The notes under the pieces: model-generated
Told to the model about the DNA's origin: nothing
The model's database searches: none
The model's input: only the letters and a program-made list of their open reading frames with translations
Shown here: in pieces, positions 4,064-63,724 of the stretch
How the letters are laid out: the number at the start of each line of letters is the position of its first letter
How positions within the stretch are numbered: position 1 is the stretch's first letter
Source: an uncultured Gammaproteobacteria bacterium
Lineage (GTDB): Bacteria > Patescibacteriota > Patescibacteriia > UBA10025 > JAHIVO01
Length of the DNA: 64,000 nucleotides
Direction of reading: 5' to 3'
Assembly: GCA_964592105.1 (NCBI GenBank)
Contig: CAZQBL010000007.1
Coordinates: 58,013 to 122,012 of the forward strand
Position numbers and translations under genes: made by a program

Positions 4064-4402
4064 CTACACCCGAGTGGCAAACTTGACCTGATCACCCTCT
4101 ATCCAATACGCCTCAATCTCGTCGACATCGACCTTATTGCGTTTCACGACCTCTCGGGCCAACATCACGCACTCCCGGGGCACGATTAGAAAAAAACTGG
4201 CGTGCCATCGCTGGAATTTTTTCCACTCCTTGGCATTGCGGTCATTAATGGTATCGGCGGTTTCCACTTCTTCGATGATCACGGTCTGACCGAACTCTCC
4301 GTCCGGTTTCCAGACCACCAGATCGGGAAATATTCCATTGCCAATATTGTGGTTTTGGTGCCCGTCCGGATTGGTACTAACCAAATAGCCATTTTTTTCC
4401 AA
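4064..4402 (-). CDS. hypothetical protein (112 aa)
   Basis: Intact ORF; PDLVVW...IIEEVE segment faintly resembles a PD-(D/E)XK nuclease core. No confident family. Confidence 0.4.
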   Translation of the reverse strand: MEKNGYLVSTNPDGHQNHNIGNGIFPDLVVWKPDGEFGQTVIIEEVETADTINDRNAKEWKKFQRWHASFFLIVPRECVMLAREVVKRNKVDVDEIEAYWIEGDQVKFATRV

Positions 4403-46513: not shown

Positions 46514-47706
46514 TTACCTGCTTAGTGGTTTGAATATCTTCCGGTATTCAATCAGTAGATACGAACCTATAAGCAGCGTGCCAACTCCTAGCATAATCAA
46601 GGCCACTGGCAAATTTACAACTTTTAAAACAAGGCCGAAAATTCCCAAAAACACGAACTGGGCCAGAGCATCAACCGCCCACTGCACGGAACTGACCGTG
46701 GCGCGGCGTTCTGATTCCAAATGATCATTCAGATACTGTCCCATAAATGGACGCAAATATCCTCTCGTTACATTCTGGAATAAAACCAGCCAGACCATGG
46801 GCAGAATCGTCAGGGCGCCCATTAAAATGATGGGCAAAGCGGTGATCAGGACCATTACAGTAAAACAGGTCATTGGTCCAAAGCGCTTAGCTATCTCATG
46901 GGCAAAATAACTGAAAAAAGCAGCTACAACGTTCAGGGCGAAGAATATCCAACCATAATACTCAAGCGGCAATGACACCAGTTCGAAATAAGGATTGTAG
47001 GTAAAAACCATACTTTTCCAATCACGCCCAATAAGGCAGTGTAGAGGATTATCCATTTAACCCGTTTGTTTTTGGCCACAAATAATACGGACAACTTCAT
47101 TATATCCTGGATTTTTTTCTTGGCGATGTCCTTGTCGGTACGCGGTGGTTCAACCATGAAACAAATAATTATGCAGGTGGCCAATAAACTTGGGATCCCC
47201 AATAATACAGGTAAGCGGATATTGGTCGCGGCTAAATATCCCGCCACCGGCGAGGCCAAAGAGAACAGCAAAAAACGATAAGCATTAGACCTGCCGTCAA
47301 CCAATTTATAATGATCACTCCTTTGCTGGGTAGCCAAAGTATCGTAAAGCAGTGCGGAGTCGGCTCCAGTAATCAGAGAAAAGCCAAAGGTCCACAGAAT
47401 GTTGGCGATCCAAATTTCCTGGGAACTACGAGCCAAGCCGAACATTAAACAATCCCCCAACAGCAGAATACTTCCCGCCAGCATAGTTTTCTTCCTGCCG
47501 ATTAAATCCGCAATTGCCCCCGTGGGAATCTGCAGAACAAACAGTAAAATTACACAGACCGATTCCATCTGATAGATTTGTGCCAGGGACATGGCAGAAA
47601 CTTTTTGAATGTAAATGATCAATACCGGCCCCCAAAACAGCGGCTCCCTCAATGCTTGATAGAACTTATACAGCAAGACATTACTCTGTACTTGTCGCAA
47701 ATTCAT
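46514..47706 (-). CDS. MFS transporter, reading frame interrupted by a single-base shift at an A5/T5 run (47007-47011)
   Basis: Two overlapping ORFs (46933..47706 and 46514..47056) encode the N-terminal 7 TM and C-terminal 5 TM of one MFS protein. Reading T6 instead of T5 on the coding strand gives ...GKVWFFTYNPYFELVSLPLEYYGW... Confidence 0.55.
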
Positions 47707-48505: not shown

Positions 48506-49567
48506 ATGTCCTCAGTAATTGATGAAACTGAAAAATTGCCCACAATTTACAAAATAGCCACACATCCAAACCCTCATTTCGACGAAATCGTAGCTATTTT
48601 CTTAATAAGAAAATACGGACATAAAAAATACCGCGGCATCGACTCGGCTAAAATCATTTTCATGAACAGTGACAGTGGTAACGCCGTGACAAAAAACACA
48701 GTAAAAGATTATGAGAAGGAGGGCACCCTGGCCATCGGCATAGGCAATGGCCGTTTCGATGAACATAAACAAGGAAGCGGCGTCAAGGAATCAGAATGTG
48801 CTGCCACGCTGGTGGCTAACTACCTCGGAATCAGCAAGAATCCGGAACTGACACAGCTCCTCAAATACGCACTTAATAACGACCGGAAGGGAGCTTCTTC
48901 ACCGTTTGATCTAGCTTCCATAATCAAATCTCTCTACCAAAATTATCCCGATGATCCGATGTTCGTCATAAACTGGGCCATGACGGCTCTTGAGTCAAAA
49001 CTGATGGAACAAAAAAAATTTTTCGACCAATCGGCTGACCACTACGCCAAGGCCAAAAAATTAAATTTCAGTTTTTTAAACCGCAATTATCTTTTGGTGG
49101 TGGCAGATTCAGACGAACCACAGTTCAACAAATACGCTAGATGGCGAGGCGCGGCGATAGTTATTCAGCGTAATTCAAAAGGAAATGTGCAAATTTTCAC
49201 CAACAAGAAGCTTGCCAATTTCCGGATGAAAGACGTAATTCGAATTTTGCGCATCAAGGAGCAAAAAAAATCTTCAACTCCTAACCCCATCACCGACTGG
49301 AAAGTACTGGCAACCGAAGGTTCATGTGCCAACTGGTACTACCAGCAAGAAACCGAGACTATTCTTAACGGTTCGCTGACAAATCCCAATATTGAACCTA
49401 CCAAATTAGACCTTAAAACGATAATCAGTGCCGTCATTACCGGCGTGAACCCCGCATCCTTTCCTAAGAACTGCCCCGTCAACAAGTGCATAAGCAAACA
49501 ATGTTCTTGGTACCACTTGGGACTATCCAGATGTTCAGCCAAACGCTTTAAACAAAAAAATAAATAA
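48506..49567 (+). CDS. hypothetical protein, possibly a UPF0160/MYG1-like metal-dependent hydrolase, with a C-terminal Cys cluster
   Basis: Strong SD (GAAGGAGGG); ATHPNPHFDEIVA and GIGNGRFDEHKQ resemble the MYG1 H.G.FH.DE and GG.YD...DHHQ blocks; C-terminal CPVNKCISKQCSWYH. Family assignment is tentative. Confidence 0.4.
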   Translation: MSSVIDETEKLPTIYKIATHPNPHFDEIVAIFLIRKYGHKKYRGIDSAKIIFMNSDSGNAVTKNTVKDYEKEGTLAIGIGNGRFDEHKQGSGVKESECAATLVANYLGISKNPELTQLLKYALNNDRKGASSPFDLASIIKSLYQNYPDDPMFVINWAMTALESKLMEQKKFFDQSADHYAKAKKLNFSFLNRNYLLVVADSDEPQFNKYARWRGAAIVIQRNSKGNVQIFTNKKLANFRMKDVIRILRIKEQKKSSTPNPITDWKVLATEGSCANWYYQQETETILNGSLTNPNIEPTKLDLKTIISAVITGVNPASFPKNCPVNKCISKQCSWYHLGLSRCSAKRFKQKNK

Positions 49568-56756: not shown

Positions 56757-57482
56757 TCAGGTGTCGCAGTAGACAGTGAAAATAAAAGGATAGTCTTCCT
56801 CGGCATCGTAAATAAACACTCTTGCTATCTCGGTTTTTTTAGTCATCGGAGGAAAATAAAGTTGCGCCCTGATTGTCTGATCATGATTCAACAACAGCTT
56901 TTCGTTAATGGGCACTATGTCAATAGATTTGAGGTACAAAACCTTGCCATGACCATAGATAATATGAGTTCTCTGGTCTGCGCTGACATACACCTTCGAT
57001 GTCCGCGGATTGCTCCAGGATACCGTTACTCTGGTGAATTCTGTTGTCATTTTTATTTCCTCAAATTTCAGTGTGTAGTTTTTAGCCTGAGGGGTAACAA
57101 TGTGCTGTCTGACAATTACTGTTTTTTCAGAAACTGGACGAGAACCACTTATATCCTCAAGTAGATGCCCGCCGTATTTCACAACCACCCATCCCACAAT
57201 TACTATAATAGCAATCGTGAATAGAGTGGAAATGATTCTGGAAACTCCGGATTTCTTTGAGACCCGGACACCAGATGCCGGGGCAGATTTCCTGGCTCCC
57301 ATCTCGGGTTTGGCCAACGGCTTTTTTTCTTTTGACTCAATTTCCTCAAGATCGGCCGCCCACTGTTTAGCAAACAGTGAAAAGCCGCCAATCACAAGTG
57401 AAGTAAAGAGGAGGCCAGTTATGACCAACACTGGGAAGGGTAATTGCCAAACTTCTTTGAATAATCTAAATAATTCTGCCAT
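56757..57482 (-). CDS. membrane protein with a C-terminal beta-rich domain (possible NfeD-like partner of the adjacent SPFH protein)
   Basis: Two TM helices, a Lys/Ser-rich linker, then a beta-strand-rich ~130-aa domain. Ends 10 nt downstream of the SPFH gene stop on the same strand. Confidence 0.35.
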   Translation of the reverse strand: MAELFRLFKEVWQLPFPVLVITGLLFTSLVIGGFSLFAKQWAADLEEIESKEKKPLAKPEMGARKSAPASGVRVSKKSGVSRIISTLFTIAIIVIVGWVVVKYGGHLLEDISGSRPVSEKTVIVRQHIVTPQAKNYTLKFEEIKMTTEFTRVTVSWSNPRTSKVYVSADQRTHIIYGHGKVLYLKSIDIVPINEKLLLNHDQTIRAQLYFPPMTKKTEIARVFIYDAEEDYPFIFTVYCDT

Positions 57483-57491
57483 GGCTCCTCC

Positions 57492-59099
57492 TTATGCCTT
57501 GTTACCAAGTCCGAGAAGATTCAAAATCTTATCGATATCCGGTACAGCGACAAGGTTAATACTCGTGCCCTGCAAGGCCTTGGCCATTTCAGCCAATGGT
57601 TTATCGCCAAAGACTAGAAACTTAAGGTAAGGCCCCACCTTCTTCACATCATCATCAGTAATCTTAGCCATGGCTTGACTCTTGGCTTCAAATTCGGCCA
57701 AGATCTTCGCCTTATTGGCTTCTGCCTCACCCCGACCTTTCAGTATAATCGCTGCTTTTTCGCCTTCAGCCTCCTTAATTCTGGCCTTGGCTTCAAAAGC
57801 TTTCTGATCAATCTGGACCTTTGAAATGGCCTTCTTGTCTAGTGCCGAAACCATGGCTTCGGTGGGTTTTACGCCCCTGACCACTACGCGTTCAAACTTA
57901 ATACCCAAATACTGCAAATCATCCTTGAGTATCTGGTTTAGCTCTTCAGAAAGCCCGTCACGCATTGTCAGGGCTTCCTCCAGACTGCCAATCCCACTGG
58001 CGACGTAGGCCCGGACAAACGAGGCCACCTTATCACCGATGAGACCCAACATCAGTTTTGAACTACCATCTTCGGAAATACGGGTCGTTTCTTCCAGTTT
58101 TGCCTTGATATCCCAGTACGAGGTTCCTAGTTCCGTGACCACGTCCCAAATCTTATCAAAGTGATAAGCAATGGAGGTGTCCACCTCAATCGATTGCGAT
58201 TCATCACCGATGATTATCACGTTCTCCGGAACCATATCATAGTACTGCACGGCTAGAGGGAGTTTAACTAATGAACCTAATTTCCAGGGCACCAAATGAG
58301 GTCCACGATCAACTTCTTCATAGGGCATACCCATAAAAAATTTGATGCCTTTTTCGGTGTTTCCGACCAACCTGATACTTAAAAACAGGTAAAAAAATCC
58401 AGCCGTGCCAAAGAATATCAAAAAAATCAAGGTGTAGGGACCAAAAACCCAATCGGTCTTTTCCAGTCTTAACACAAACCATATTAAAGCGGAGATAATA
58501 ACCAGAACCCCGGCAATCATTATTGGAAATAGCCCCTTTTTTACGTACTCACGTTGGGCCTCCCTTTTTTCTTTCTTCAACTTACGGAAGCCCTCGATTT
58601 CAACTACTGTCTTTGCTCCACTGATACCGGTACTGGTAATCGTTCCGCCTTCACGGTACGCTTCCATAACATTCTCGTTAAATTTCTCCAGCTCACTTTG
58701 GCAGTCTGCTATCTCTTTTTCAAGTTTGGTAATTGCGACGGAGTCTGACTTTCTCCTTTTTTCTTTTTTTAGGGCCTTCTTTCTTCGGAGCTCATTATTC
58801 AGTTTTCTCTTGGACTCAAACAATTTTTTTCTTAGCAAATCGTAATTTTTCTGCTCCTTTCGAAACCCCCGTTCCAGCTCAAGAATTTTATCATTCGTAT
58901 CTTTGATGGCCTTTTTGCCTAGTAGAGCCACCTTCCACCAATGAATAATCGCAGTAATTGAAAACAGTACAACATTCATCAAAAGATAGACCGGCCAGCA
59001 CCAGTCACAGCCGGTAGCAATAACTCCAATTAACCCAATGGCTGAAAGGGCAATAGCTACCCAGAAAAACGACTTGAAGAACTTATTTAAAGCTTCCAT
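57492..59099 (-). CDS. SPFH/Band-7 (flotillin/stomatin-like) membrane protein with a long coiled coil
   Basis: N-terminal TM helices, a K/E-rich coiled coil, further TM helices, then an SPFH core (...FERVVVRGVKPTEAMVSALDKKAISKVQIDQKAFEAKARIKEAEGEKAAIILKGRGEAEANKA). Confidence 0.7.
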   Translation of the reverse strand: MEALNKFFKSFFWVAIALSAIGLIGVIATGCDWCWPVYLLMNVVLFSITAIIHWWKVALLGKKAIKDTNDKILELERGFRKEQKNYDLLRKKLFESKRKLNNELRRKKALKKEKRRKSDSVAITKLEKEIADCQSELEKFNENVMEAYREGGTITSTGISGAKTVVEIEGFRKLKKEKREAQREYVKKGLFPIMIAGVLVIISALIWFVLRLEKTDWVFGPYTLIFLIFFGTAGFFYLFLSIRLVGNTEKGIKFFMGMPYEEVDRGPHLVPWKLGSLVKLPLAVQYYDMVPENVIIIGDESQSIEVDTSIAYHFDKIWDVVTELGTSYWDIKAKLEETTRISEDGSSKLMLGLIGDKVASFVRAYVASGIGSLEEALTMRDGLSEELNQILKDDLQYLGIKFERVVVRGVKPTEAMVSALDKKAISKVQIDQKAFEAKARIKEAEGEKAAIILKGRGEAEANKAKILAEFEAKSQAMAKITDDDVKKVGPYLKFLVFGDKPLAEMAKALQGTSINLVAVPDIDKILNLLGLGNKA

Positions 59100-59424
59100 A
59101 ACTTCCTCCTTTAAAGGAATTATTGTTTTATTATTGTTTTATTTACTTTTCAATGATCTTTCCTTAACACCTTAACCCCAAGTGTGCCTGTTTGCGCTTG
59201 CTTGATAATTTACACCAAGAGTAAATTATCAGAGCCTACAATATTACACCATTTTGACGATTTTGTCAAGTCCACTTTAAAAAATACTTATCAACAAGCG
59301 GAAAATTATGAAAAAATAATCTAATTTACCACCTTGACAATATAAATCACCTATACTAGGCTTGTTTAAAAAGCCAATCAACAAAAAAATAACAAGAATC
59401 GAACTTTGAAAAAAGGAGGAGAAA

Positions 59425-59859
59425 ATGAAAACCTATGATGATATGACTCCAGGATTTGTCTTTAGTTTGTCGGCGATAATTTTTGTAATTTCGTTTACGT
59501 TCCTAATTTCCTACCTAACTTTCTACGACTCGACTCGAGATTACGTGGTGATAAAATACGAGATAATCAATCCTGGTGGTTTTCAGAACAAAGTAAAAGC
59601 AGCAGGATATCTAGGAGCTTTTATCTATAATCGTATTAAAACAAAACCAGAACTGGCAAGATTTAATAAAAAAATTCATTGTCGGCGCCTCTCTTCAGAC
59701 TTAGAATTTCATTTCCAACGTGAATTCAAAGATTATGAAGAGGCGCTAAACTGGACACAAGAAGCAGAAAAAGAAATTGATAAATTACTATCAGAGAACC
59801 AATCTTACCTCAAACTAGTAAACATAAAACCTCCTGTCCACAAAATAGAATTAAGATAA
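59425..59859 (+). CDS. hypothetical membrane-anchored protein (144 aa)
   Basis: Strong SD (AAAAGGAGGAGAAAATG), one N-terminal TM helix, no recognised family. Confidence 0.45.
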   Translation: MKTYDDMTPGFVFSLSAIIFVISFTFLISYLTFYDSTRDYVVIKYEIINPGGFQNKVKAAGYLGAFIYNRIKTKPELARFNKKIHCRRLSSDLEFHFQREFKDYEEALNWTQEAEKEIDKLLSENQSYLKLVNIKPPVHKIELR

Positions 59860-59917
59860 CTTAGTTTTGCTTAAGCCTCTTATTTTAATAAGGGGCTTTG
59901 GTTTTTCCTGCCCATCG

Positions 59918-60778
59918 CTATCTCTTTAACGTCCGCCCATCACTTATCATCTCAACATCACCCTCTTTATCATTTCTCAAAATTTGAACCCCCAAGCCAT
60001 TCAATTTATTCAAGGTAATTTTATGAGGATGGCCGAATTTGTTATCCTGGCCGACCTGAATAACCGCGTACTGCGGGCAAACTGCTTTCAAAAACTCCAT
60101 TGACGACGAATACTTGCTGCCGTGATGTCCGACTTTCAAAACATCGCTTTTTAATTCTGCTGGCTTTTGCCTTAACAGTTGTCTTTCAACTGTCTCGGGT
60201 GCATCACCGGTAAAAAGGAATGAAGTATCCTGATATTCCAGACGGGTAACTATCGAAGTATCATTAAGATCCTTAAATTCTTTTTGACTGATATCCTCAA
60301 ATGGATATAAAATTTCCAAATCCGCCTCGCCAAACTTATAAACCTGACCGGCCGCTGGTTTAACCATGGCGATTCCTTTTTGGGAAATCAAATCTCGCCA
60401 TTCCCTAAAATCCGCAGAACTGCTGGCCACTTCAGTGTATAAAACTTTTTCAACCTTGTAGCGCTTGACCACCTCAACCAAGCCGGCCACATGATCGGAG
60501 TGCGCGTGAGTCAGAATCATCAAATCTATGGTGTGATCATAAAAAGGCAGAGCTCTGCCCAGTTTGCTCAGCACCGACGAATCAGGTCCGCCGTCAATCA
60601 AGATATTCTGATGCGACGGAGTTCTGATAAAGATACTGTCACCCTGACCGATATCGAAAAAATACACCTTTAACCGGCTGTCCTGCTCATTAAAATAAAC
60701 TGAAAAAAGCAGAAAAGCCGAAATTATCAGTAAGCCGATTAAACCTGCAAGTATTTTTTTGTTTCTCGTTTTGGTCAT
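59918..60778 (-). CDS. ComEC/Rec2-related metallo-beta-lactamase domain protein (membrane-anchored)
   Basis: N-terminal TM helix, then VYFFDIGQGDSIFIRTP...LMILTHAHSDHVAGL (MBL HxHxDH motif). This region corresponds to the C-terminal domain of full-length ComEC. Confidence 0.75.
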   Translation of the reverse strand: MTKTRNKKILAGLIGLLIISAFLLFSVYFNEQDSRLKVYFFDIGQGDSIFIRTPSHQNILIDGGPDSSVLSKLGRALPFYDHTIDLMILTHAHSDHVAGLVEVVKRYKVEKVLYTEVASSSADFREWRDLISQKGIAMVKPAAGQVYKFGEADLEILYPFEDISQKEFKDLNDTSIVTRLEYQDTSFLFTGDAPETVERQLLRQKPAELKSDVLKVGHHGSKYSSSMEFLKAVCPQYAVIQVGQDNKFGHPHKITLNKLNGLGVQILRNDKEGDVEMISDGRTLKR

Positions 60779-60875
60779 TGACCTGTAAAAAGATAAATGC
60801 TAAACTAACAAAACCTTTGCTATTTGAAAATTTACTAATATAAACCCCAAACTTTCAAAAAATAAGGAGGACGTT

Positions 60876-62045
60876 TTGAGCAAAATTACCCTCACTGCCA
60901 TCAAGGCAGACATCGGCAGCATCGGCGGACACATAAAACCCTCACAAGCAATTCTGGAAGCGGTCAGAACGGCTATTGGCGAAGAAAAGGCGATAACAGA
61001 CTTCCGCATCACCTACACTGGCGACGATATCCTGATACTCATGGCGCATCATGAAGGGATCAACAGCTGGGTTATCCATGCGGCCGCCGATCGTGTTTTC
61101 CGCCAAGCCACGGAAATTGCCAAACGACAGGGCTTGTACGGGGCCGGTCAGGACCTTTTGACCGACGCTTTTTCCGGAAATGTCAAAGGTGCGGGTCCCG
61201 GAATCGCCGAGATGGAATTCGAGGAAAGGCCAAATGAGGCCTTTATCGTCTTCGCCGCGGACAAAACCGATCCCGGTGCTTACAATCTGCCTTTGTACCT
61301 GGCTTTCGCCGATCCCATGTACAACGCCGGCTTACTACTGACCGCGCACATGCAAAAAGGCTTCACTTTTTCCATCATCGACGTCAATTACGCGGAATGC
61401 AAGCAATGCGGAAAATTCCATTTTACCGATCAGCGCTGCGCTGAGGCCACGGCTAACAACCCCAAAGGCGACCGGCTCATAAAACTGTCGGCGCCCGAGG
61501 ACATCTACAAAATCGCCGCTCTGCTCCGCGACGGCGAAAGATTCGCCATCCAGTCCATCCATTCCCGATATGATGGTTCCCAAGCTGCCTCTGTCTCCAC
61601 CACCCGGCTCCACAACATCGCCGGCAAATACACAGGTAAGGACGATCCGTGCGCCATTGTTCGGGTCCAAGGCTCATTTCCAGCGACGGGAGAAGTGCTT
61701 TCCCCCTTTGCTCTGGGACATTTGGTGGGCGGCTTCATGCGCGGTTCGCATAACGGCCCGCTGATGCCGGTAAAACAAAATGAGATTATTTCCTTTTTCG
61801 ACGGCCCGCCGATTGTTTCCTGCGCCGCTTACTGCGTCAAGGACGGCAAGCTGACCGAAGCTGTTGATGTTTTTGACCACCCCGTATGGCACTATATCCG
61901 CCAGGAAGTTGCCCGCAAGTCAGTGGATATCAGACGTCAAGGATTCTTCGGTGCGGCCATGCTGCCCATGACCGAGCTTGAATATGGCGGCATTGTCGCC
62001 ATCCTCCAATCTCTTGACACACAGTTTGAGATTGTTCCAAGCTAA
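60876..62045 (+). CDS. fbp: fructose-1,6-bisphosphate aldolase/phosphatase (class V FBPase, bifunctional)
   Basis: TTG start after AAGGAGG. The N-terminus SKITLTAIKADIGSIGGH...GDDILILMAHHEG...LYGAGQDLLTDAFSGNVKGAGPGIAEMEFEE matches the archaeal-type FBP aldolase/phosphatase signature (KADIGS..GH, Y..GQDL.SD.FSGN..G.GPG.AE). The gene is ~54% GC against ~40% in its flanks. Confidence 0.85.
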   Translation: MSKITLTAIKADIGSIGGHIKPSQAILEAVRTAIGEEKAITDFRITYTGDDILILMAHHEGINSWVIHAAADRVFRQATEIAKRQGLYGAGQDLLTDAFSGNVKGAGPGIAEMEFEERPNEAFIVFAADKTDPGAYNLPLYLAFADPMYNAGLLLTAHMQKGFTFSIIDVNYAECKQCGKFHFTDQRCAEATANNPKGDRLIKLSAPEDIYKIAALLRDGERFAIQSIHSRYDGSQAASVSTTRLHNIAGKYTGKDDPCAIVRVQGSFPATGEVLSPFALGHLVGGFMRGSHNGPLMPVKQNEIISFFDGPPIVSCAAYCVKDGKLTEAVDVFDHPVWHYIRQEVARKSVDIRRQGFFGAAMLPMTELEYGGIVAILQSLDTQFEIVPS

Positions 62046-62067
62046 AAAAACACTCCATTATTAAATC

Positions 62068-62092
62068 GCTGGTATTTTACCGGCGGTTTTTT
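62068..62092 (+). terminator. Rho-independent terminator after fbp
   Basis: GCTGGTA-TTT-TACCGGC stem-loop followed by GGTTTTTTG. Confidence 0.4.
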
Positions 62093-62188
62093 GTCTGCTT
62101 AGCAAAATTTACGAGCCGAAGTAAATAAAATAAATTAAAAATCGGTCATGAAAATTTTGTAAAGGCAAACAATCCCGCTTATCGAGTT

Positions 62189-63724
62189 TCAACTTGAGAA
62201 ACGAGATTTTTCAGTTATTTTCAAAAAGCTCTTTCTAAAAAGTATAAATATCAAAATTCCATAACCTACTACTAGCCACCACCAACTGATATTGCCAATT
62301 GAAAATGAGGCGAAATTTAACGTTGAAAATTTTTCCACAATAAATATTATATAACTTAAGATTGTCCAGACAATCCAGGCGGAAATATGTCCCGCCGGAA
62401 GCCAGACCAGAGATAATAATCCGGTCATAAACCCAAAACCCATGGCTACTGGTATAGCCGGCAAAATCAAAACATTGACCAAGGGTGCGACTAAAGAAAA
62501 TCTCCCGAACTGCCACAGAATCAAAGGCGTGGTCATGATAATAGCGGACAAAGTCGCGGTCAGAGTCTGCCTGATCTCCAAAATTTGCGGCAGCCAAGAC
62601 AACCATCGTTCTAAAAACGGCGAGAGATAAACCAAACCAATAGTCGCCAGAAACGACAATTGAAATCCCGTGTCAAAAAATAATACTTTAGGATTAATCA
62701 GAACCATGATCCCCGCCGTTACCGCCAGCGCGTTAGTTATCCGGCTCAAACGCCCCAGTTGCCTAGCTAGTAAAACCAGCATACCCATAATCCCCGCCCG
62801 CACCACCGAGGCCTGGGCTCCGGTCATCAAGACAAAGAAAACAATGGCGCCCAGCGATACCCAAAATGATTTTTTCCGAGAAATCCACAAAGACCTACAC
62901 ACACTCAATATCAAAACCCCAATAATAGTAATGTTATAACCGGACAAAGCCACAATGTGGGTAGTGCCGGTGCGGTTGAAACTGGCCATCAGATCATCGG
63001 GAATGGATTTTTTGGTCCCCAAAATCAAGCCGCCCAGAAAAGAGGCCTGCGGTTCTGGCAGGACCTGTCCAATAGCTTGCATAAATTGGTTTTTAACCGA
63101 CAGTAGTCCGGACATAATCAAATTGCCCTGATCGTGCGCCAAAACCTTAATTTCTGGACGGTAACAAACCGAATAGATGCCGTATCTAGCTAAATATTTA
63201 TCATAGGCAAAATCTCGCTGTCCTGCCTCTGACTCAAAAGTCAAAGCTACCGGCGTCTGGAGTTGACATTTAATATCCAGTAAATCACCATAGCGGTATT
63301 CGGGATACAAATTTGTTTTAACCAAAACCTTGCCCGTAACAAACGCGGGCATATTGGCCAAGCCCCTCACAATATTTGTCGTCAACTTGACATGATCTTT
63401 TCTGACATCCGGCTCCGCACTAACGAGACCGGCCCAGCTGACCTCCTTATTATTATAAAACTGAATGTTTTGAGTCGTCAGCCTAGGTACGGAAAAATCA
63501 TATCTGAAAACACCCAGACCGAAAAAGATAAGCAAAAAACCTATTAAACGACCACGGTGGTTTTGCCAAAAAAACGTAATGACTAAAATGCCCACCAAGC
63601 ATAGGGCGTAAATTGCAAGAAACGAAGTCGGCACCACAGACCCAAAACCCACGCCGATAATAAAAGCCAGAGATATGATTAAGAATAATTTTGGTCTGGA
63701 TCGTGTCGTCATAAACCGATACAA
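62189..63724 (-). CDS. comEC: ComEC/Rec2 competence protein, membrane channel part (DUF4131 + Competence domain), lacking the MBL domain
   Basis: 511 aa, ~10 TM helices; ComEC competence-domain sequence (GTTHIVALSGYNITIIG...LVLLARQLGR...). The MBL domain is encoded separately at 59918..60778. Confidence 0.75.
   Translation of the reverse strand: MYRFMTTRSRPKLFLIISLAFIIGVGFGSVVPTSFLAIYALCLVGILVITFFWQNHRGRLIGFLLIFFGLGVFRYDFSVPRLTTQNIQFYNNKEVSWAGLVSAEPDVRKDHVKLTTNIVRGLANMPAFVTGKVLVKTNLYPEYRYGDLLDIKCQLQTPVALTFESEAGQRDFAYDKYLARYGIYSVCYRPEIKVLAHDQGNLIMSGLLSVKNQFMQAIGQVLPEPQASFLGGLILGTKKSIPDDLMASFNRTGTTHIVALSGYNITIIGVLILSVCRSLWISRKKSFWVSLGAIVFFVLMTGAQASVVRAGIMGMLVLLARQLGRLSRITNALAVTAGIMVLINPKVLFFDTGFQLSFLATIGLVYLSPFLERWLSWLPQILEIRQTLTATLSAIIMTTPLILWQFGRFSLVAPLVNVLILPAIPVAMGFGFMTGLLSLVWLPAGHISAWIVWTILSYIIFIVEKFSTLNFASFSIGNISWWWLVVGYGILIFILFRKSFLKITEKSRFSS

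Follow-up and report, generated by a model that had tools for sequence, protein, structure and literature searches.

A predicted bifunctional FBP aldolase/phosphatase gene on an inserted cassette in the split ComEC locus of a Patescibacteria lineage

How did a genome-reduced bacterium come by an enzyme of a family best known from archaea and thermophiles, and why does the base composition of its gene stand apart from everything around it? The question is raised by a fructose-1,6-bisphosphate (FBP) aldolase/phosphatase gene, hereafter the FBP gene, in a stretch of contig CAZQBL010000007.1. The whole analysed stretch, 64,000 nt long, is called the window (WIN in comparisons), and 50 of its open reading frames (ORFs) were considered, the target and 49 others. 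An earlier note had taken the deviant composition as a sign of likely horizontal acquisition. We found that horizontal acquisition is supported by empty sites in four relatives with conserved flanks, whereas the composition fails as evidence for it, because the bias persists at near-saturated divergence. The FBP gene lies between two cistrons of a split ComEC locus, with the following features.

59918..60778, minus strand: stand-alone, membrane-anchored metallo-beta-lactamase (MBL), the ComEC C-terminal module, 286 aa; right flank (Pfam Lactamase_B).
60778..60806, plus strand: promoter-like site TTGACC, 17 nt, TG-n-TAAACT (consensus scan).
60779..62188, plus strand: inserted segment in full (1410 bp), from the start codon of MBL to the stop codon of ComEC-N.
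60864..60870, plus strand: Shine-Dalgarno (SD) sequence AAGGAGG, 5 nt upstream of the TTG at 60876 (sequence).
60876..62045, plus strand: FBP aldolase/phosphatase coding sequence, 389 aa, TTG start, TAA stop (ORF list and sequence).
61398..61469, plus strand: insertion of about 23-24 aa in the protein, residues 175-198, C175-x2-C178-x3-H182-x5-C188; putative zinc knuckle.
62063..62099, plus strand: intrinsic terminator hairpin CCGCTGG...CCGGCGG, then a T-run (terminator scan).
62189..63724, minus strand: ComEC N-terminal part (ComEC-N), DUF4131 and Competence, 511 aa; left flank (Pfam and homologues).

Four related loci, L139, L140, L141 and L142, share the gene order GlnA-PrfA-GlmS-...-ComEC-N-MBL-Band_7, and their ComEC proteins are 64%, 64%, 58% and 85% identical to that of the window, respectively. 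In these loci the distance from ComEC-N to MBL is 1, 8, -4 and 2 bp, with no FBPase between them. In the window, 1410 bp separate the same two genes and hold one opposite-strand gene with its promoter-like site, SD and terminator. The same cassette occupies the same site in L136, L003 and L004/L005, where the enzyme is 93%, 74% and 72% identical to that of the window, respectively. The spacer between MBL and the FBP gene is 96-97 bp long and carries the same promoter-like boxes in the window, L003 and L004, the arrangement in the latter two being TTGACG, 17 nt and TGATAAnnT, and the terminator hairpin core is invariant across the window, L136, L137, L003 and L004. Since site, spacer, promoter boxes and terminator core are all shared, the cassette has a single origin. 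The -35 hexamer of the promoter-like site in the window abuts the start codon of the divergent MBL gene; we infer promoter function only from the match to consensus. No relative was found among IMG/VR viral contigs, so nothing points to carriage by a phage.

ComEC is split throughout this lineage (the window and L139-L142) into ComEC-N (DUF4131 plus Competence, about 500 aa) and a separate MBL with an N-terminal membrane helix of its own, and a Lactamase_B domain occurs in none of the 120 best ComEC-N matches. The abutting or overlapping ComEC-N and MBL ORFs of the relatives suggest translational coupling. In L003 (11183-11250) and L004 (9222-9290), the last codons of ComEC-N (...KKTAGKVTAV and the stop) read through the FBP terminator hairpin, so that the cassette has supplied the sequence of a rebuilt C-terminus of the host protein. 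In the window and L136, about 110 bp of additional spacer take the place of this overlap. An IS200-like Y1 transposase lies beside ComEC-N or MBL in L004 (10730-11269), L005 (3651-4190), L139 (5384-6004) and L141 (8496-9011), and the neighbourhood of these two genes may be insertion-prone.

The earlier note had named the product a bifunctional class V FBP aldolase/phosphatase; that it belongs to this family was confirmed by profile, structure and residue comparisons. The protein matches PF01950 over profile positions 1-361 of 361 (E=3e-145, 484 bits against a cut-off of 25) and the PDB entries 3r1m and 3t2b with E of about 1e-90, with 40-41% identity to the solved enzymes, which are the FBP aldolase/phosphatases of Sulfolobus tokodaii and Thermoproteus neutrophilus. 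A Foldseek search with an AlphaFold model (pLDDT 84, pTM 0.88) retrieved 3t2c, 3r1m and 1umg at E values of 1e-34 to 1e-37 and TM scores of 0.76-0.86 (0.77-0.86 for 3t2c and 3r1m), all further matches being noise; the three low-confidence loops of the model coincide with the catalytic loops. Of the 91 alignment columns with conservation of 97% or more among 167 bacterial and archaeal family members, every one is kept in the window protein. Among the kept residues are Y252-T-G-K255-D256-D257, D12, H19, D50/D51, Q92 and D129/K130, which align to Y229/K232/D233/D234, D11, H18, D52/D53, Q95 and D132/K133 of ST0318. From the structures reported in Fushinobu 2011 and Du 2011, K255 is presumably the Schiff-base lysine, Y252 the catalytic tyrosine, and the Asp, His and Gln residues the Mg ligands. 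The score against the NCBIfam equivalog NF041126 is 494.5 bits, under the cut-off of 520, apparently because some 23 aa inserted after residue 174 split the alignment. Judged by its sequence, the gene apparently encodes a full-length, active bifunctional FBP aldolase/phosphatase.

Enzymes of this family condense dihydroxyacetone phosphate (DHAP) and glyceraldehyde-3-phosphate on the Schiff-base lysine and, after a loop rearrangement, hydrolyse FBP at the same Mg site, so that the formation of fructose-6-phosphate (F6P) is irreversible. The bifunctional mechanism is said to have been established for the family by Say and Fuchs in 2010 and by the structures of 2011. Like the solved enzymes, the window enzyme covers the full Pfam profile and has the same predicted fold and the same conserved residues. 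Unlike them, it carries the C-x2-C-x3-H-x5-C insertion, which is absent from all solved structures, and its host is a Patescibacterium that is apparently neither a thermophile nor an archaeon.

This insertion is present in 17 of the 120 best matches, with the motif invariant in all 17, and is absent from the 366-aa forms and from the PDB structures, where it appears as a gap in the alignments. The model shows it as a beta-hairpin and a short helix, at pLDDT 84-88, and the four Cys/His residues with their conserved spacing would form a putative zinc knuckle or zinc-ribbon-like mini-domain. A homologue search using the 62-aa insertion segment alone returned zero matches. We have not seen this Cys3His-insertion subfamily of FBP aldolase/phosphatases described, and it is apparently unstudied. 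Two insertion carriers outside the clade of the window have a readable context, which is gene-rich and not of the Candidate Phyla Radiation (CPR): L143 has 62% GC, with.87 GC at third codon positions (GC3), and L144, at 43% GC, also contains a TonB-dependent receptor and cobalamin genes.

Where did the enzyme come from? Neighbor-joining (NJ) of the proteins with 100 bootstraps gave 100% support to the window clade (P0001-5), or 84% with P0006, and placed it inside a large, mostly bacterial clade that is itself supported at 100%. The larger clade also holds Moraniibacteriota, Paceibacterota, Synergistaceae, Acetomicrobium and unnamed proteins from metagenome-assembled genomes (MAGs); other Patescibacteria and MAGs named Synergistaceae, Deltaproteobacteria, Syntrophobacterales and Aminicenantes are among its members. 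The next outgroups are Nitrosopumilaceae and Micrarchaeota. The nearest relatives outside the window clade are bacterial, with 60-68% identity; none above 68% was found among 5.8 billion clusters, and a scan of GTDB species representatives and metagenome contigs with the protein gave nothing closer than 60-62%; the close relatives were all reached by look-ups of the exact protein. Identity to other archaeal and to Bacillota sequences is only 40-45%. The protein does not nest within archaeal or thermophile sequences, a placement that the earlier note had proposed to check by a phylogeny. From these sequence relationships, in which the shared CCHC insertion is a better guide than the weakly supported inner branches of the tree (12-46%), the donor was most likely a non-CPR bacterium with a CCHC-insertion enzyme rather than an archaeon. 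Because the CCHC insertion is shared with non-CPR carriers and the clade is mostly bacterial, "archaeal-type" is a label of the family and not of provenance.

The divergence among carriers bears on the age of the insertion. The proportion p of differing four-fold sites in the FBP gene is.16 between WIN and L136,.54 between WIN and L137 and.64 between WIN and L003, the latter two being near saturation, and carriers of the cassette at the same site have diverged to 72-74% identity in the enzyme, 68% in ComEC and 61-68% in MBL. Kimura protein distances of FBP and ComEC are.07 and.10,.17 and.25, and.32 and.42, respectively, with a ratio of about 0.7 in all pairs; this constant ratio fits co-divergence of the two genes since an old insertion. 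On such sequence divergence the insertion is shown to be old, and it would predate the split of lineages whose enzymes are now 72-74% identical. As for the relatives that lack the cassette, L142 groups with WIN and L136 at 100% bootstrap. By ComEC and MBL, L139 is nearer to L003/L004/L005 than WIN is; by GlmS, both L139 and L141 are nearer to them, and PrfA is less clear.

The FBP gene has 54.1% GC, as the earlier note had it, against 42.6% in the rest of the window, a background closer to 43 than to the 40% given there. Every compositional comparison that had been proposed (windowed GC, codon usage and tetranucleotides) made it the top outlier of the window. It is the highest 1170-nt GC window in the 64 kb (z=3.7), with atpD as the runner-up at 50.4%; its GC1, GC2 and GC3 are.582,.421 and.621, the GC3 of the other 49 ORFs being.469 +/-.046 (z=3.3); and it has the maximum of the window in codon-usage chi-square as well as in tetranucleotide distance, which lies about 4.5 sd over the mean. 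At window-average synonymous usage the gene would have 48.5% GC, the same as atpD, so that about 5 of the 11 points of excess are accounted for by its amino-acid sequence. The synonymous excess is +5.8 points (z=3.7). Across 41 loci in hosts with at most 45% GC, members of the family exceed their flanks by 5.5 +/- 1.3 points in GC and by 1.4 +/- 3.0 points in GC3; against this family baseline, the GC3 excess of the window gene over its flanks has a z of 4.3.

The synonymous excess lies in C-ending codons. The frequency of C at third positions (C3) is.42 in the FBP gene,.21 in minus-strand genes and.26 in other plus-strand genes, and that of G (G3) is not raised, whereas GC-rich family members combine a C3 of.38-.42 with a G3 of.27-.28. 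The C-fraction of NNY codons is.63 in the FBP gene,.49 in other plus-strand genes and.33 on the minus strand. An excess of GC3 is present in every clade member: the gene has.62 in WIN,.67 in L136 and.70 in L137 over backgrounds of about.47-.54, and.47 in L003/L004 over a background of.39-.40. Its synonymous sites evolve about half as fast as those of neighbouring genes, with 28/177 four-fold sites differing in the FBP gene and 24/79 in the flanking genes of the same genome pair (p=.011), and 76/149 and 136/220, respectively, in a second pair (p=.042). A rough two-state estimate of passive decay would put the ancestral GC3 above 0.8-1.0 on the WIN/L137 side and at about 0.64 on the L003 side. 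These values are inconsistent with each other, and the sites are near saturation; the bias has therefore been maintained in the recipients, probably as a C-ending codon preference under selection for high expression.

Two other accounts of the composition were set aside. A mosaic or partial replacement within the gene is unlikely, as GC3 and C3 are raised along the whole gene with only a mild central peak. We also dropped the idea that third positions rich in C make antisense read-through RNA from the ComEC operon G-rich and hence Rho-resistant, the overall GC skew of the gene (-0.085) not being extreme for the window. Elsewhere in the window, a 112-aa ORF at 4064-4402 (minus strand), with no Pfam match, has a GC3 of.62 and ranks second for synonymous GC excess, at +5.6 points; it could be a further gene of deviant composition, or no gene at all.

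The antisense strand of the FBP gene had been described as almost stop-free, which overstates the case: its three frames contain 5, 11 and 21 stops, or 31.6 per kb against 47 +/- 9.5 for genes elsewhere in the window. Shuffling of synonymous codons gives antisense open stretches as long as the longest one observed, of 129 codons (p=0.82), and the observed stretches are not conserved in FBP orthologues. The view that the antisense ORFs are spurious was right, as shuffles and lack of conservation mark them as compositional by-products, and a hidden antisense gene was rejected for the same reasons.

The start signals of the gene set it apart from most of the window. The TTG start at 60876 and its canonical AAGGAGG (60864-60870) were both confirmed, as was the statement that most native genes lack a strong SD: the full heptamer lies upstream of 5 of the 50 ORFs, an SD of at least 6 nt upstream of 7, and 43 have no SD-like motif. 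At the orthologous place, L136, L137, L004 and L138 have AAGGAGG and L003 has CAGGAGG. The genes led by AAGGAGG are mostly accessory or of no assigned role and are grouped at 56757-62045, with one more at 48506; two weaker AAGGAG sites precede 24251 and 46933. Many of the SD-less ORFs have a TATAAT-like box 6-10 nt 5' of the ATG (for example, at starts 23197, 35269 and 43753), which looks like the pattern of leaderless or very-short-leader mRNAs. An Rfam scan found no regulatory RNA near the FBP gene; its matches in the window are a tmRNA and one tRNA, both elsewhere.

The window also holds ordinary bacterial housekeeping genes, among them an F1Fo ATP synthase operon, several aminoacyl-tRNA synthetases, a ClpB-like ATPase, Tgt, RecO, SmpB with tmRNA, IF3 and L20. 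ComEC-N finds matches in Patescibacteria only, the closest named one being Candidatus Kerfeldbacteria at 58% identity. The minus strand carries 42 of the 50 ORFs, with the FBP gene among only eight on the lagging strand, and the plus-strand GC skew is negative across the 64 kb except in one 1-kb window; the skew and the strand bias are consistent with a single replichore. An MFS (major facilitator superfamily) transporter appears as two overlapping ORFs in different frames (46514-47056 and 46933-47706, both on the minus strand), possibly through a frameshift, pseudogene formation or an assembly error. Just past the right end of the window, on the same contig, glmS (L001, 15209-17043), whose product consumes F6P, is split by in-frame stops into a 132-aa GATase ORF and a 479-aa SIS ORF; the gene is intact (613-672 aa) in L003, L004, L139, L140 and L141.

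The explanation that we consider probable joins these elements as follows. A self-contained expression cassette of 1.4 kb, in which a sigma-70-type promoter and a consensus SD precede the coding sequence and an intrinsic terminator follows it, would have come from a non-CPR bacterial donor of the CCHC-insertion enzyme subfamily. It would have entered, in opposite orientation, exactly between the normally abutting ComEC-N and MBL cistrons in an ancestor inside a Kerfeldbacteria-related Patescibacteria lineage, and the present patchiness would have arisen through later losses or through allele exchange by homologous recombination. Of the GC excess, about 5 points come from the amino-acid sequence, as in atpD and family-wide, and about 6 from a synonymous C-ending shift that the recipients have kept, probably through selection for efficient expression of a strongly expressed gene. 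The enzyme, taken to be functional, would convert DHAP and glyceraldehyde-3-phosphate via FBP to F6P in one irreversible step and would thereby supply GlmS, cell-wall precursors and the non-oxidative pentose pathway. This role as an F6P supplier is our inference; the GlmS gene lies four genes from the FBP gene in L001.

Several observations weigh against this explanation. The cassette carriers are not monophyletic by ComEC, MBL, GlmS or PrfA distances, and therefore either at least three clean losses or transfer between related lineages via flank recombination must be assumed. Neither convincing direct or inverted repeats nor a target-site duplication were found at the cassette borders, and no transposase or integrase marks them. 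NJ support inside the bacterial clade is only 12-46%, too low for the tree to single out a donor. Part of the C-over-T preference is a strand effect, and atpA/D/G, infC and rplT, which are presumably well expressed, show no C-ending bias. An Akashi-type test gave no signal of selection for translational accuracy, as C-ending codons were not enriched at conserved residues (odds ratio 0.7-1.4, n.s.), and the slower synonymous divergence could instead reflect a coalescence of the cassette younger than that of its flanks.

In one rival account, the cassette would have been exchanged repeatedly among related Patescibacteria by natural transformation and flank recombination, its composition and low synonymous divergence reflecting a shared, somewhat GC-richer pool rather than selection on codons. 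We regard this as unlikely, though it is the rival with the most in its favour: presence and absence are mixed in both subclades (WIN, L136, L003 and L004/5 with, L142 and L139 without the cassette), carriers are non-monophyletic by flank and host genes, four-fold divergence is lower in the FBP gene than in the flanks, background GC3 varies among relatives (.43-.56 in L142 genes), and the organisms encode ComEC. Binned ComEC/MBL similarity between carriers, however, is not raised near the junctions, which also led us to reject co-transfer of the flanks with the cassette; the FBP/ComEC protein-distance ratio is constant, and no sampled relative has a background GC3 of.62-.70. Still more doubtful is a recent transfer whose donor was GC-rich, archaeal or thermophilic and left its unameliorated signature in the composition. 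It would account for the strongest compositional outlier of the window and for the empty sites in relatives, including L142 with its 85% identical ComEC, and GC-rich CCHC carriers such as L143 do exist. Yet genomes that have diverged almost to saturation at synonymous sites have the cassette, bias included, in the same place, the two-state estimate disagrees between the WIN/L137 and L003 sides, G3 is not raised as it is in GC-rich family members, and the search of 5.8 billion clusters gave nothing above 68% identity outside the clade, archaea reaching 40-45%.

That the gene is native and vertically inherited, its GC set by amino-acid composition and expression level, is improbable. Half of the GC excess does come from the amino-acid sequence, atpD has the same expected GC, and the family stands about 5.5 points over its flanks in all low-GC hosts. 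The synonymous excess (z=3.7 in the window) goes beyond this, however, as does the excess of GC3 over the flanks when set against the family baseline (z=4.3), and four syntenic relatives lack the gene and have ComEC-N and MBL abutting. These empty sites are likely ancestral because ComEC-N and MBL are fused as a single gene in most bacteria. We give almost no credence to an assembly chimera or contamination, or to a hidden antisense gene that shaped the composition. The abrupt GC change at both gene borders might suggest the former, but two JGI samples have identical junctions, on contigs of 168,734 bp and 120,281 bp, a separate 168,780-bp NCBI/Logan contig carries a cluster member, and L003, L004, L005 and L136 have the same layout. 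The latter could point to several antisense ORFs of 54-111 aa, which fail the shuffling and conservation comparisons given above.

The old insertion from a bacterial donor, which we prefer, resembles in part the small islets of atypical composition for which Lawrence and Ochman reportedly set out the amelioration framework. As in such islets, a single gene with odd GC3, codons and tetranucleotides lies between conserved neighbours, and relatives have empty sites. Unlike them, the locus has no integrase, transposase, tRNA target or repeats at the insertion, its deviation is undecayed at near-saturated synonymous divergence, and its synonymous sites evolve more slowly than those of the flanks.

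The enzyme family is known already from CPR bacteria: a bifunctional FBA/FBPase in Gottesmanbacteria was attributed to lateral transfer (Jaffe et al. 2018, PMC6389311). The present locus is a further member in another CPR lineage and overturns no current knowledge. It shares with the Gottesmanbacteria case the enzyme family, the presence in a CPR genome and the ascription to lateral transfer. It differs in that the lineage is Kerfeldbacteria-related, no RuBisCO or phosphoribulokinase (PRK) context is visible, and insertion site, empty sites and age are all open to direct demonstration. What it adds is a precisely mapped insertion between ComEC cistrons, the age of that insertion, a compositional anomaly that does not stem from the donor, and the Cys3His-insertion subfamily. 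In CPR bacteria, phosphofructokinase is largely absent, and aldolase and upper glycolysis/gluconeogenesis are patchy (PMC7304191); a one-gene route to F6P is therefore a sensible benefit, and the suggestion in the earlier note of such a route in a reduced genome is plausible.

A more far-reaching joint reading, which we put forward tentatively and hold to be rather unlikely, is that these cells make the enzyme as one of their most abundant proteins, as its slow-evolving C-ending profile might suggest, and that the Cys3His insertion marks a metal- or redox-regulated subfamily that passed from free-living bacteria to Patescibacteria; high abundance might then possibly offset a slow enzyme. If true, this would mean rare translational selection together with a regulated gluconeogenic switch in an ultra-small symbiont. 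For the biology of gene transfer, the locus illustrates that composition can mislead as a clock, since the gene was acquired and yet its atypical GC would not be a residue of the donor. For the organism, a genome-reduced Patescibacterium would have gained a one-enzyme route from triose phosphate to fructose-6-phosphate as a plug-in cassette that brought its own promoter, SD and terminator into a genome mostly without SD sites.

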